64,000 nucleotides of DNA, from assembly GCF_003790525.1 (NCBI RefSeq), contig NZ_CP033635.1; one strand, given 5' to 3'. The translations under genes were made by a program, and so were the position numbers. The notes beneath the pieces are model-generated. The model worked only from the letters and a program-made list of their open reading frames with translations. It made no database searches and was not told where the DNA came from. Positions 37,150 to 43,426 of this stretch are shown here, in pieces. Every line of letters starts with the position of its first letter. The stretch's first letter is position 1. The DNA is from Escherichia coli (lineage in GTDB: Bacteria > Pseudomonadota > Gammaproteobacteria > Enterobacterales > Enterobacteriaceae).

Positions 37150-37205
37150 TTATTGTCAGGCTCTGATCACAGAGCCTGACATCTCCGTAATATCTTTTTG
37201 AAGTC

Positions 37206-38651
37206 TCAAATATTTTCGCCATTGTTGGCGATGAGATCCCGATACCAGTAAAACGACGCTTTACGTATCCTTTCCAGCGTTCCCTTCCCTTCGTTGTCTT
37301 TATCGACATAAATCATTCCGTAGCGTTTTTTCATTTCCCCTGTTCCGGCAGAAACCAGGTCAATGCAGCCCCACGGTGTGTAGCCAATTAAGTCAACACC
37401 ATCTTCAACAACGGCTTTTTTCATTTCCCGAATATGGGAAGCAAAGTACTCAATGCGATAGTGATCGTTCACCGTGCCGTCAGCTTGTCTCTGGTCAACC
37501 GCACCCAATCCATTTTCGACAATAAACAGCGGCAACTGGAAATGATCCCAGAACCAGTTGAGTGAATAACGTAGCCCTGCCGGATCAATTTGCCATCCCC
37601 ATTCGGATGTATCGATATAAGGGTTGCTGACCAAATCTCGTGGTTCAACATAATTCAGTTGCGGGTTATCTGGCGAAAATTGCGTAGTAAAAGACATGTA
37701 GTAGCTAAAACCGATAAAGTCGACACAACCTCTGGCAAGAATCGTGTTATCTTCTGGTGTGATATCGAGGTTGAATCCTTTCCTGGCAAAGTAATTCAGC
37801 ATATGTTGCGGATAATATCCACGCGCATGAACATCAGTAAACCAGTAACGACGATGCATCGCTTTCGTGGCCATCATCATATCGTTGGGTGCACACGTCA
37901 GAGGATAGATGGGGCACATGGCGATCATACAGCCGATATTAAATTCAGGATTGATCGATTTTCCAGTCTGTACCGCCAGGGCACTGGCAACTAACTCGTA
38001 ATGTACCGCCTGGTACATTATTTGTTCGCGCTCATTGATATCTTCCTCTGGCGAATACAAGATACCGGAATTAGTAAATGGACACAGGCTTTCGCTGAAA
38101 TTCACCTGATTATTGATTTCGTTAAACGTCATCCAGTACTTTACTTTTTCTTTATAGCGCGTGAAGACCGTTGATGCGAAGCGGATGAAAAAGTCGATCA
38201 GTTTACGGTGTCGCCAGCCACCATATTTTGTCACCAGATGATAAGGCATCTCAAAATGCGAAAGCGTCACCACAGGCTCCATTCCCTGCTTCAGGCATTC
38301 ATCGAACAGATCATCATAAAATTGTAAACCCTCTTCATTCGGCTCCTGTTCGTCACCTTGCGGAAAGATTCGTGTCCAGGCAATGGAAGTTCGAAAGCAT
38401 TTGAATCCCATCTCGGCAAATAACTGAATATCTGTTTTATAGCGATGATAAAAATCAATTGCTTCATGATTGGGATAATTAAGCCCGTCGATAATGCCTT
38501 CTGTCACTTCACGCGGCACCCCGTGAGCGCCAGCAGTCATCACATCAGCGATACTGATGCCTTTTCCTCCTTCATTCCAGCCACCTTCCAACTGATGCGC
38601 GGCTACCGCGCCACCCCATAAAAAACCTTTTTTAAATCCTGACATACACAA
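37206..38651 (-). CDS. Glycoside hydrolase family 1 6-phospho-beta-glucosidase
   Basis: 481-aa ORF with GH1 signatures ([15 protein letters not shown] near N-terminus, TENG catalytic region ENGLG); part of a low-GC insertion not present in K-12. Confidence 0.8.
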
Positions 38652-38669
38652 CTCCTTAACTAAAATAGA

Positions 38670-40343
38670 TTACCACCAGACTTCCGCCTGGATGCCGGCC
38701 ATAAATTCGTCTTTGCTGTTCTCATTAAACTTAAAATTAGATAATTCGTTATCCAGAATATTGATATACGTGCCATAGAAGCGAATTTCTGGTCGTGAAC
38801 CTAAAATGCTTTCACCCACTTTCAATGCATGCCAGAGTGTCGTTTTATAAGCCGATTCATTTAGTGTTACACCCTGCTGTGCTTTGTTCTGTTGCTTAAA
38901 CCAGCCTAATTCAAGCCCCGTCTGATTCCATGTATTCCAGATCCAGGCCGGTCTTATTACGGTGCGAATACTGTCAAAATCACTATGAGCGCCACTTTCA
39001 TAACTATAAACATCTTCGCCATGAGAATAGACAAGCGCGTTAGCCATAATAATATTGTCAGTAAGATACATCTCGCCCTGAGAGATTAAACGCCAGGCGA
39101 TCCCATTGGTATGGTCACCATAGTAATAGCGACCATGCGCCATCGTGTTACTGGCATCTGAGAAACTGGCAAAACTGCTGGCATAGGAATTATTGGCAAC
39201 CTGTAACGTAAATTCATTAAACGTATCGCGTTGCAGTTTTTGCCGTAAAACAGAAGTCAGCATCCAGCTATCTTTCATTTCAAAATAACTGTCGTCATTT
39301 TCATTATCTTGTTGTTGATCCGTTTTATTAGGTGCGGAATATTTAGCCATTAATGATAATGTTGCATCATCCCATAACGGGATATTGCGATAACGAACAT
39401 CCACAGAATTAGTATTCATCTGACTGGTACGCGTAAAATCACGGGAGTAAACATCGACATCATCTCGGCTTAAGGACATATCAAACAGCCCTACACCAAG
39501 TGCCCAGTTTTCAATCCCCACACCCGCAGCGACATCCGTGGTTAAGGTTTTCCAGTCCAGCATTTGGATCTCATATTGCGGGAGTTTATGTTTGCCTACC
39601 CAGAAGTCTGCCTCTGGCGCGAAGGGTAAAAAACCTCGCGTTGTCAGATAAATATCACTGAACTGCATGATATTTTCATTGGCACTGTCACCAAACCAGG
39701 CATCGTTATACTGCTCACCTACGTTGCCATCATAGGTAACGACCGCATTTGCCGTTTTACCGTCCTGATTATAAACACGCTGATTTAAGGTTAAGTCAAA
39801 CCAACCGCTCATCTCGTTACCAAAACGTCCCAGAGAACCCGCTGCATAAGTTTGTGGTGAGCCATGATTTCCGGTACCCCAACCTGAGCGAAAGTACCCC
39901 TGATAGCTGAACCCAATATCATCTTTTATATATTTACTGATATCTTTCAGGGTCACGCTTTCGATAGTGGTTTTATCGCCTTTACTTTCAATAACGGCAA
40001 TTTGCTGCGATCCATTTATAGTATGTGCTGCGGCAGACGAGTTCTGTTCACCGTTTTCATTTTTGATGTTATCAGCAACGGGAGATGGAGCTGATATTTC
40101 GGCAAGCGAGGCCGATTGATATTTATTTTCTGTGATGCTTTTTTGTAATGTCGAAAGTCGGAATTTATATACTCCTAGTTCATTCTGTGTTGCTCTCAGC
40201 TCTTGTTTATTTTGCGACAATTCATTTTCAAGCAGTTCAAGGCGCTGCTCTATGGTTAATTTTGTTGCCATCGCGTTCAATGGAAACAATGCTGTAATAA
40301 TAGAAAAAGACAAAAGGCTGACGTTAAGCGTCTTTATATTCAT
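38670..40343 (-). CDS. LamB-family sugar porin with N-terminal coiled-coil extension (ScrY/BglH-like)
   Basis: 557-aa ORF: signal peptide, heptad-rich segment ([22 protein letters not shown]), then beta-barrel with aromatic-rich strands and C-terminal ...AEVWW. Confidence 0.7.
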
Positions 40344-40398
40344 GACTTATCCTTAAGAGTGTAATAATTTCCTCCAGCTATCGCACTGGAGGAAAAAA

Positions 40399-40716
40399 TC
40401 AGGCATGGAGCTCTTTTCTTAATGAAATGATTTCCCTGGCTAAATCCTGGCATAATATTGCATTCATCAAATGATCCTGTGCATGTACCAGAATGAGATT
40501 AACTTTTATTTTGCCACAGCCTTCATCCTGACTAATTAACGCGGTCTGAATCTTATGCGCCTGAAGACAGGCGGATTCAGAACTGGCCATTAGCTGAGTT
40601 GCGCCCTGCCAGTCTTTTTGCCCGGCACAACGTATGGCTTCCATCGCATCAGAACGGGCCTGTCCTGCGTTGACCAGTAACTCCATAACAAGTTCTTCAT
40701 CTGCAAACATCAACAT
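40399..40716 (-). CDS. PTS lactose/cellobiose-family EIIA component
   Basis: 105-aa ORF with conserved His motif (LVHAQDHLM) typical of ChbA-type EIIA. Confidence 0.8.
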   Translation of the reverse strand: MLMFADEELVMELLVNAGQARSDAMEAIRCAGQKDWQGATQLMASSESACLQAHKIQTALISQDEGCGKIKVNLILVHAQDHLMNAILCQDLAREIISLRKELHA

Positions 40717-42060: not shown

Positions 42061-42173
42061 TTTTTATACCTGTTGTTTTGGATATTTATACATCCCAATA
42101 AAGCATGTATGCCATATCCATTTTATGATGTGTGAAAAGTTAGTTCAGGTAATAGTTTAATAAAATTAGATTC

Positions 42174-42485
42174 TTACTGTTGCAGTAGTTTCATCGCAAA
42201 TTCAAGAACTGCCTGTCCGTTCATGGTGCCATAGTCTTTCATCTCGATAACAGCTACAGGCATTTTCCCCTGTGCAACAGCTTCAATCTCTGGTTTCTGA
42301 AAGCGAACTTGCGGGCCAAGTAAAACAACGTCAACTTCGTTATTTTTAATTTTCCCTTTAGCCTCTGCAATCGCCAATGCGGAAATATTAACTTCAAGTG
42401 AAATAGCGTTAGCATGATCAATCATACGTTTAACCAGCATACTGGTTGACATGCCCGCAGCGCAAACTAACAATATCTTTTTCAT
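42174..42485 (-). CDS. PTS lactose/cellobiose-family EIIB component
   Basis: 103-aa ORF with N-terminal active-site Cys motif (LLVCAAGMSTS). Confidence 0.8.
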   Translation of the reverse strand: MKKILLVCAAGMSTSMLVKRMIDHANAISLEVNISALAIAEAKGKIKNNEVDVVLLGPQVRFQKPEIEAVAQGKMPVAVIEMKDYGTMNGQAVLEFAMKLLQQ

Positions 42486-42683
42486 ATTTTCCCTTACTGG
42501 TATATAACAGATTACATTGTGTAAATATCATATCCCGCAGTAGCTATACGTCCTGGTACATTGATCACAGTAATACAGCACTAAAGTTGTTCAACATCAG
42601 GGTGATAATTAAACGACTCGGCCATAGGATAAACCAATCAGGACTCAACTCCTTGTTTTCAATGGCTCTTAAAAGGTGCAAAA

Positions 42684-43382
42684 GTGATTTTTCAAAAGAT
42701 TGCCCGCTTACTTAAATCCGAGATCAATGGCTATTCATGGCATGTTGGTGATTTGTTGCCGTCAGAAGCTGAACTCGCTGTTCGTTATAATGTTTCGCGT
42801 AATACCCTGCGTAAGGCATTATCCTTGCTGGAAGGCGAAGGAATTATTCATAGAAAGCATGGTTCAGGAACATACATTCAAAAAAAGAATTTTGTTGCAC
42901 ACATTGATCACATGAACAGTTTCAGTGAAATTGCGCATAAAAGCGGCAAAGAGGCAGGGAGTCAGATTATGAAATTTGAAGTGCAGGATGCTTCTCCCCC
43001 TATTGCGACTGAGCTGAATTTAGTGACTGGTGAGCAGGTTTATTACATAAAGAGACTGCGATTCATTGAGGATAATGCAGCACAATTAGAAGAAACGTGG
43101 ATGTCAGTGGCACGTTTTCCTGATTTAACCGTAGCACATATGCAAAAATCCAAATTTTCGTATATTGAGAACGAATGCGGGATCAAAATCATTGGCACCT
43201 TTGAAACTTTCTCCCCGACTTTTCCTACCCCAGAAATCGCCAGTATTTTACGGATCAGCCCACGGGATCCCATACTTAAAATTCAGACCCAGGCTGTGGA
43301 CAGTAACTCTATTCCGCTGGATTATTCGTTACTTTACAGCAATATTTTCGAGTTCCAGGTAAAGTACTTTTTCCCGCGATAA
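42684..43382 (+). CDS. GntR/HutC-family transcriptional regulator (UTRA effector domain)
   Basis: 232-codon ORF from GTG with N-terminal GntR HTH (ELAVRYNVSRNTLRKAL); divergent from the PTS genes. Confidence 0.75.
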   Translation: MIFQKIARLLKSEINGYSWHVGDLLPSEAELAVRYNVSRNTLRKALSLLEGEGIIHRKHGSGTYIQKKNFVAHIDHMNSFSEIAHKSGKEAGSQIMKFEVQDASPPIATELNLVTGEQVYYIKRLRFIEDNAAQLEETWMSVARFPDLTVAHMQKSKFSYIENECGIKIIGTFETFSPTFPTPEIASILRISPRDPILKIQTQAVDSNSIPLDYSLLYSNIFEFQVKYFFPR

Positions 43383-43426
43383 AAGCAGACGCACAGAGTG
43401 CTGGCATCACATTCTGTGCGTATGGT

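Follow-up and report, generated by a model that had tools for sequence, protein, structure and literature searches.

Four beta-glucoside operons of Escherichia coli, namely chb, asc, bgl, and bgc, are listed as cryptic in PMC4488073. The last of these is the closest described relative of the locus analysed here, which occupies the junction between marB and eamA in a stretch of 64,000 nucleotides of E. coli DNA (contig NZ_CP033635.1), hereafter called the window. According to the relevant passage of PMC3585215, bgc encodes the enzyme II (EII) components IIB, IIA, and IIC of a phosphotransferase system (PTS; BgcE, BgcF, and BgcI, respectively) and the phospho-beta-glucosidase BgcA, and BgcR is a GntR-type positive regulator of the five-gene bgc operon. 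The substrates named in the passages of PMC3585215 and PMC4488073 that deal with bgc are cellobiose, arbutin, and salicin, and the latter source describes the wild-type operon as cryptic, with activation requiring selection. A six-gene cluster of strain CFT073 (c1955-c1960), labelled 'PTS system, cellobiose specific', is scored in a passage of PMC2831201 as occurring in SMS-3-5 but in neither K-12 nor O157.

Positions 37150-43426 of the window are 100% identical over 6,277 bp to E. coli SMS-3-5 (NC_010498.1, 1622648-1628924) and, judging by gene content and order, very probably represent the SMS-3-5 copy of the bgc locus, with bgcR divergent from bgcE-bgcF-bgcI-bgcH-bgcA. This operon (bgcR / bgcE-F-I-H-A) was reportedly described by Neelakanta, Sankar, and Schnetz in 2009, and its porin is reportedly BgcH. 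In comparison with bgc, the locus comes from the same species, encodes the same six products in order, and has the same divergent GntR-type regulator, with no difference detected apart from its prevalence (see below). According to the open reading frames (ORFs) and their protein families, the operon runs IIB, IIC, IIA, porin, phospho-beta-glucosidase, and a GntR/UTRA ORF lies on the opposite strand, 198 bp from bgcE. The locus is also accessory, the K-12 site being empty and Nissle 1917, LF82, and E. albertii carrying it, and its homologues in Citrobacter, a Klebsiella-labelled genome, and one Gram-positive bacterium form a pattern that fits bgc. As for the subunit labels, those of IIA and IIC are swapped in PMC3585215 relative to the family assignments obtained here, by which BgcF is EIIC and BgcI is EIIA.

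Several points weigh against this identification. It is based on architecture and distribution, and 'Bgc' appears in no database name given to these exact proteins. The six-gene cluster of CFT073, c1955-c1960, is presumably bgc. A dependence of bgc on CRP and its occurrence in E. albertii are reported for the operon of 2009. Taken alone, the match of the CRP-like site proposed below (8/10 consensus positions) is not significant, with an estimated chance of ~15% per spacer of this size. Finally, bgc is reportedly found mainly in phylogroup B2 and rarely in commensals, whereas the prevalence observed here is 46%, including B1-type serotypes and many hosts, which is wider than reported for bgc.

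Since this is almost certainly an operon whose genes, regulator, and laboratory substrates were published in 2009, the present analysis has little weight for discovery. Its practical value is annotation: exact-sequence look-up of the six proteins returns generic names in RefSeq and UniRef, which makes the link to bgc easy to miss. New here are the exact boundaries, the prediction of a class II CRP promoter and of a candidate operator for BgcR, the finding of strong purifying selection, and the occurrence of the cassette at a different core site in each of three genera. These additions may help a modest further study to explain the strong conservation of a 'silent' operon.

Comparison with the other known systems, whose features in the case of bgl, chb, and asc are established knowledge, gives a different picture. 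Like the locus, bgl (bglGFBH) is a cryptic, AT-rich, and variably present aryl-beta-glucoside PTS operon with a phospho-beta-glucosidase of glycoside hydrolase family 1 (GH1) and its own LamB-family porin, BglH. However, bgl has a single fused glucose-family EII (BglF), the antiterminator BglG, and silencing by H-NS, whereas the locus has split IIB, IIC, and IIA of the lactose/cellobiose family and a GntR/HutC DNA-binding activator. The chb operon (formerly cel; chbBCARFG) shares with the locus the split IIB/IIC/IIA organisation and the PTS family, the nearest NCBIfam equivalogs being the chitobiose subunits, and, as is also reported for bgc, it is cryptic for cellobiose and CRP-dependent. In contrast to the locus, chb encodes the GH4 glucosidase ChbF, is regulated by the AraC-type ChbR together with NagC, and includes no porin gene. 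An assignment of the locus as a Chb system was rejected by scores below the equivalog cut-offs: 107 vs 148 bits for IIA, 278 vs 760 for IIC, and 66 vs 157 for IIB (NF007796, which we take to be the Chb-type IIB model). The asc operon has a LacI-type regulator. Identity of the locus with bgl, chb, or asc was rejected because of mismatches in EII type, glucosidase family, or regulator.

The bgu operon of Streptococcus pneumoniae (regulator BguR) and the gmu operon of Bacillus subtilis (regulator GmuR) likewise combine a lactose/cellobiose PTS with a GH1 enzyme and a HutC-type regulator, and BguR is described as similar to BgcR in a passage of PMC3585215. However, BguR and GmuR act as repressors and BgcR reportedly as an activator, and Gram-positive operons of the bgu/gmu type lack a porin, unlike bgc. 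The GH1 gene beside the EIIC gene of Listeria is only 36% identical to BgcA. As for the porin, BgcH resembles the sucrose porin ScrY in having a LamB-type barrel preceded by an N-terminal coiled-coil segment in the periplasm, but it shows no detectable single-sequence similarity to any solved porin, among which ScrY and LamB would be counted, and its operon context is beta-glucosides rather than sucrose.

The preliminary description of the window had placed six ORFs between marB and eamA, and both their places and all six family assignments are upheld by NCBIfam, Pfam, and PDB relatives (Table 1). The best supported protein is BgcA, which scores 1030 bits against the 6-phospho-beta-glucosidase model NF007154 (cut-off 624). 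Its best solved relatives are 3pn8 and 4f79 (797 bits, full-length alignment), which we take to be Gram-positive enzymes, with E. coli BglA (2xhy) scoring lower (674 bits). The acid/base motif NEIN (175), the nucleophile motif VENG (376), and the phosphate-binding S...K.Y loop (432) are intact. Thus, the model score, both catalytic glutamates, and the phosphate loop place BgcA among the GH1 6-phospho-beta-glucosidases.

For BgcH, Pfam reports a LamB domain at residues 147-557 (E 2.4e-81) and Sugarporin_N at residues 30-56 (E 2.1e-6). The barrel and the N-terminal periplasmic coiled-coil extension are those of a LamB/ScrY sugar porin, and the earlier term 'ScrY-type' is fair for this architecture. 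NCBIfam maltoporin models match BgcH below their cut-offs only; since these equivalog cut-offs are not reached, it is not LamB itself. A single-sequence search of PDB with BgcH gave no match, because the porin is too diverged for such a comparison. In a protein collection clustered at 90% identity, the porin and the glucosidase share one cluster with 14,022 members, presumably an artefact of the clustering that may stem from fused gene calls. The cluster sizes for both proteins are therefore unreliable.

Among the PTS subunits, BgcF scores 336 bits against TIGR00410 (cut-off 236), and this score, the EIIB cysteine, and the EIIA histidine motif define a split-EII lactose/cellobiose PTS (TC 4.A.3). 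BgcI stays below the cut-off of every NCBIfam chitobiose, lactose, and cellobiose IIA model, and all three subunits are far below the cut-offs of the substrate-specific equivalogs for chitobiose, cellobiose, and lactose. The identity of BgcF is 96% to E. albertii and 92-93% to Citrobacter and Salmonella enterica subsp. diarizonae (hereafter S. diarizonae). BgcR combines a winged helix with a C-terminal UTRA effector domain, which places it in the HutC subfamily of the GntR family, and its solved relatives are YvoA/NagR and DasR. The GTG start of bgcR and its ribosome-binding site are invariant across seven genera.

Table 1. Features of the marB-eamA region, with positions counted from the first nucleotide of the window
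Feature	Position	Strand	Description	Basis
marB	36931..37149	+	left flanking gene	ORF list, RefSeq
Variable segment	37152..43436		6,285 bp	occupied/empty site alignment
Left hairpin	37154..37181		12-bp stem between convergent marB and bgcA; likely bidirectional terminator	folds of -22 to -23 kcal/mol on both strands, z -4.7 and -5.8
bgcA	37206..38645	-	GH1 6-phospho-beta-glucosidase, 479 aa	NCBIfam NF007154, PDB relatives, motifs
bgcH	38670..40343	-	outer-membrane sugar porin, 557 aa	signal peptide, N-terminal coiled-coil extension, LamB barrel
bgcI	40399..40710	-	PTS EIIA, lactose/cellobiose family, 103 aa	NCBIfam, motif HAQDHLM at residue 76, RefSeq
bgcF	40738..42060	-	PTS EIIC permease, lactose/cellobiose family, 440 aa	TIGR00410, Pfam PTS_EIIC
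bgcE	42174..42485	-	PTS EIIB, 103 aa	NCBIfam lactose/cellobiose IIB models; CAAGMSTS (CxxGxSTS) at residue 8
Control region	42486..42683	.	divergent bgcR-bgcE spacer, 198 bp	alignments; same length across seven genera
Near-palindrome CTGTTATATACCAG	42497..42510	.	in the predicted bgcE leader, next to the bgcE ribosome-binding site on its upstream side	invariant between E. coli and E. albertii
Predicted -10 hexamer TATGAT	42527..42532	-	putative bgc promoter	spacing from the CRP-like site; unchanged between E. coli and E. albertii
CRP-like site TGTGATCAATGTACCA	42554..42569	-	centre 42561.5	8/10 consensus positions
Inverted repeat GTTTA-N16-TGAAC	42589..42614	.	candidate BgcR operator, ~40 bp upstream of the CRP-like site; GTTCA-N16-TGAAC in other genera	half-sites conserved
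bgcR	42684..43382	+	GntR/HutC-type regulator, 232 aa, GTG start	Pfam GntR 4-65, UTRA 87-218
Right hairpin	43382..43428		inverted repeat between convergent bgcR and eamA; likely bidirectional terminator	folds of -23.3 and -18.3 kcal/mol, z -3.3 and -2.7
eamA	43427..44326	-	right flanking gene	ORF list, RefSeq

Judging from these sequences, the set of parts is complete with intact active sites and lacks only EI and HPr, which the host would supply; the gene content thus supports the self-contained uptake and hydrolysis module proposed earlier. In such a module, a beta-glucoside (cellobiose, arbutin, or salicin according to the published substrates) would pass the outer membrane via the BgcH porin. 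Phosphate would travel from the host EI and HPr to the histidine of BgcI (EIIA), then to Cys8 of BgcE (EIIB), and finally to the sugar transiting BgcF (EIIC), after which BgcA would cleave the phosphorylated glucoside, yielding glucose-6-phosphate together with either glucose or an aglycone. Expression would start from a weak promoter that requires the activator BgcR and cAMP-CRP, with class II geometry (CRP at -41.5, TATGAT as -10), and the operon would be silent ('cryptic') under laboratory conditions. Of these elements, families, active sites, distribution, and selection were computed, the substrates, the activator role of BgcR, and the silence of the wild-type operon are taken from published work, CRP dependence is a reported feature of bgc, and the promoter and operator positions were inferred by phylogenetic footprinting of the 198-bp control region.

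According to the alignment of occupied and empty sites, the variable segment stands where the empty marB-eamA junction has ~40 bp. Its left boundary falls at ~37151/37152, 2 nt past the marB stop codon, in agreement with the matches of island-free genomes, which end at window position 37151, and its right boundary (~43436) lies within the final three eamA codons. The EamA C-terminus reads ..KVRG in SMS-3-5 (occupied) and ..KVGS in BL21 (empty), one site of each having been compared. At 43427-43436 the variable segment extends into the eamA frame, with the eamA length unchanged. The marB and eamA genes flank six intact ORFs, with which the RefSeq annotation agrees, and the surroundings are ordinary K-12 backbone, with ydeA, marC, and marRAB on one side and eamA, ydeE, mgtS, and dgcZ on the other. 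In K-12 MG1655 the marB-eamA gap measures 30 bp and contains no gene, and the same holds for BL21.

With 42.8% GC vs 47.6% for the window, the segment is the minimum among 231 sliding 6.3 kb stretches, and the third-position GC content (GC3) of its genes is 0.39-0.47 vs 0.55-0.58 in marC, marR, marA, eamA, and ydeE. No direct repeat of at least 14 nt flanks the segment, no target-site duplication appears in the occupied/empty site alignment, and no transposase or integrase ORF or tRNA gene is annotated nearby in the ORF list or RefSeq. Thus, of the traits expected from a mobile island, integrase or transposase, tRNA/att target, and direct repeats are missing, and low GC is the sole one present. 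As for the preliminary description, its island coordinates prove right to ~10 bp, and its statements on the empty K-12 site, the low GC, and the lack of flanking repeats and mobility genes hold as well. Both hairpins that border the gene cluster (Table 1) are likely to act as bidirectional terminators, given their folding energies and their positions between convergent genes. The empty site of BL21 has a different hairpin of its own, which resembles the left one of the occupied site only slightly. An Rfam scan of the region matched no RNA family.

The distribution of the segment was surveyed in 5,426 complete E. coli genomes, with a carrier defined as having at least 80% of the segment present. 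The number of carriers is 2,493, at 95-100% identity, and among the 5,417 genomes in which the marA-marB flank was found, ~46% are occupied by the segment. Of the 2,563 genomes with any match, 2,493 are carriers, most of which have the segment at full length. The median carrier has the segment in one place (maximum three); because it is single-copy in nearly all carriers, no second similar cluster was detected at the sensitivity of the search. Carriers include Nissle 1917 and LF82, both of phylogroup B2, O103 and O121 strains, and many animal and human isolates. Nissle 1917 has the island at the same site, with all six genes intact.

Two genomes have reduced copies. NZ_AP027822.1 (extracted locus 2501-2970) retains 139 bp of the left end of the island (37150-37288), fused to an eamA gene without its C-terminus; as a secondary deletion, it indicates that some empty-looking sites arose by loss. 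In FDAARGOS_943 (NZ_CP065615.1; extracted locus 2378-4770), bgcR and the eamA 3' end are deleted, and an IS1A is inserted inside the EIIC gene. Two further groups of records concern labels. A 4.83 Mb chromosome labelled 'DH5alpha' (NZ_CM135829.1, 594828-601105) bears the full island, unlike K-12, and is probably mislabelled or not a K-12 derivative. Among plasmid-typed records, the marA-marB flank is found in five and the island with its control region in five, and these may be chromosomal fragments filed as plasmids.

Other species were covered by searching a single genome of each bacterial species with the EIIC and then running tblastn with all genes. E. albertii has the complete cluster in unchanged order, adjoining marB-marA-marR, with protein identity of 83-96%. 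The six-gene cassette is located between tktB and ypfG/nudK in Citrobacter sp. On2M (8671-14864 of the extracted locus) and between nfsB and an autotransporter esterase/pheP in S. diarizonae (2473-8674 of the extracted locus), and no mobility genes were seen in either neighbourhood. Because these core sites differ, the cassette must have moved horizontally at some time. In Cedecea, Ewingella, and a Klebsiella-labelled genome, bgcA is relocated to the opposite side of bgcR, Yersinia alsatica and Rouxiella have a cluster variant with a distant GH1 enzyme, and in Listeria grayi the only shared parts are the EIIC, at 68% identity, and a remote GH1 enzyme.

Synonymous divergence between SMS-3-5 and Nissle is 0.06-0.12 for the bgc genes and 0.04-0.065 for the mar genes, and the corresponding values against E. 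albertii are 0.8-1.9 and 0.47-0.78. Since the divergence of the bgc genes equals or exceeds that of the mar genes, the segment has resided at the site for long, with no recent arrival. All six reading frames are without internal stops in SMS-3-5, Nissle 1917, and E. albertii. Their dN/dS values are 0.02-0.09 vs E. albertii (0.055 for bgcA) and 0.04-0.18 vs Nissle, which resembles marR and marA, and the six bgc genes are under strong purifying selection. The segment is thus an old, widespread accessory locus of Escherichia, not a recent strain-specific acquisition.

The preliminary description, by contrast, had regarded the island as a candidate for strain-specific biology with a specificity yet to be found, and had named a characterised operon with matching genes and an assigned substrate as the outcome that would tell against it. 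The number of E. coli carriers and the E. albertii copy contradict the former claim, and bgc, an E. coli operon of exactly this content published with cellobiose, arbutin, and salicin (PMC3585215, PMC4488073), is the outcome named. Because this matching operon with its substrates was found, the first interpretation is partly refuted. In its full form, i.e., a recent strain-specific island of unknown specificity inserted at the marB-eamA junction, it is now extremely unlikely. The GC and GC3 values below those of the flanks, the absence from K-12 and BL21, and the horizontal movement implied by the other core sites in Citrobacter and S. diarizonae would all suit such an island. However, the same site is occupied at 95-100% identity in 46% of complete E. 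coli genomes, the E. albertii copy adjoins marB, the synonymous divergence points to long residence, and the substrates have been published. A decaying relic, silent through disuse and heading for loss, is also very unlikely. It would agree with the cryptic state reported in the bgc passage of PMC4488073, with the decayed copies of NZ_AP027822.1 (139 bp left) and FDAARGOS_943 (no bgcR, IS1 in bgcF), and with the fact that some genomes label the glucosidase merely 'family 1 glycosylhydrolase', but the six frames are intact in SMS-3-5, Nissle 1917, and E. albertii with dN/dS of 0.02-0.18, the active-site motifs are preserved, and at least 80% of the segment is retained in 2,493 of the 2,563 genomes that match it at all.

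A third explanation accepts that the locus is bgc and treats cellobiose, arbutin, and salicin as side activities, with the true substrate or inducer being another beta-linked glucoside or short oligosaccharide, such as gentiobiose, sophorose, laminaribiose, cellodextrins, or a plant or host glycoside. This compound would be detected by the BgcR UTRA domain and consumed in settings other than the warm laboratory ones tried so far. We consider this possible but rather doubtful. On the one hand, the wild-type operon is described as cryptic and in need of selection (PMC4488073), yet purifying selection on its six genes is strong and ~2,500 genomes retain them intact. That the operon has a porin of its own, extended as in ScrY, hints at a bulky or scarce substrate, and the PTS subunits score under the cut-offs of all substrate-specific NCBIfam equivalogs. 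BgcA, in turn, is nearer to the presumably Gram-positive glucosidases than to E. coli BglA. On the other hand, the published phenotypes concern exactly cellobiose, arbutin, and salicin, and there is no direct evidence for another substrate. Moreover, GH1 6-phospho-beta-glucosidases are typically broad for the aglycone, so the known substrates could be the real ones. A wider proposal, which we put forward only tentatively and do not expect to hold as a whole, is that bgc is not cryptic in nature at all. Selection would maintain it for another beta-linked glucoside or oligosaccharide, the true BgcR ligand, which would be met in the cold outside the host or in a gut or urinary niche, and the cassette would spread among enterobacterial core sites without a recognisable mobile element.

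Returning to the bgc identification, the control region between bgcR and bgcE is 95-100% identical in ~2,500 E. coli genomes. The TGTGA half of the CRP-like site is invariant across seven genera, and the entire site is invariant within Escherichia. A CRP consensus search allowing one mismatch missed this site, which has two mismatches; the site is proposed because of its conservation and spacing, and not because of the match score. The first base of TATGAT lies 29.5 nt downstream of the centre of the CRP-like site, which puts the latter at -41.5. We predict from this spacing that the two elements form a class II CRP-dependent promoter, with a predicted transcription start of bgc near 42520 and a leader of ~35 nt. 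A generic scan for sigma-70 promoters and terminators gave matches no commoner than in shuffled sequence. TATATA (~42500-42506) was rejected as the -10 element, as CRP would then sit near -67, on the wrong helix face, and the leader would be ~9 nt. For bgcR, GATAAT (42604-42609) was rejected as well, having no suitably spaced -35 and being unconserved outside Escherichia.

The inverted repeat upstream of the CRP-like site keeps its half-sites across genera (they are invariant in Escherichia), while its 16-nt spacer is free to vary, which makes it a candidate BgcR operator. As for CTGTTATATACCAG, it is invariant between E. coli and E. albertii, with adjacent bases differing, and could be a second operator or a leader element.

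Two minor observations concern the neighbourhood of the locus in other strains. BL21 (NZ_CP053601.1; extracted locus 1249-1843) has a RelE/ParE toxin and HTH antitoxin pair between marC and marR, which is absent from the window, K-12, and NZ_AP027822.1 and marks a second small variable spot beside the mar operon. In Nissle 1917 (extracted locus 2182-2390), two pseudogene remnants, of a 2-oxo-tetronate isomerase and of YdeI, lie between dcp and dgcZ and indicate a deletion in that neighbouring region.

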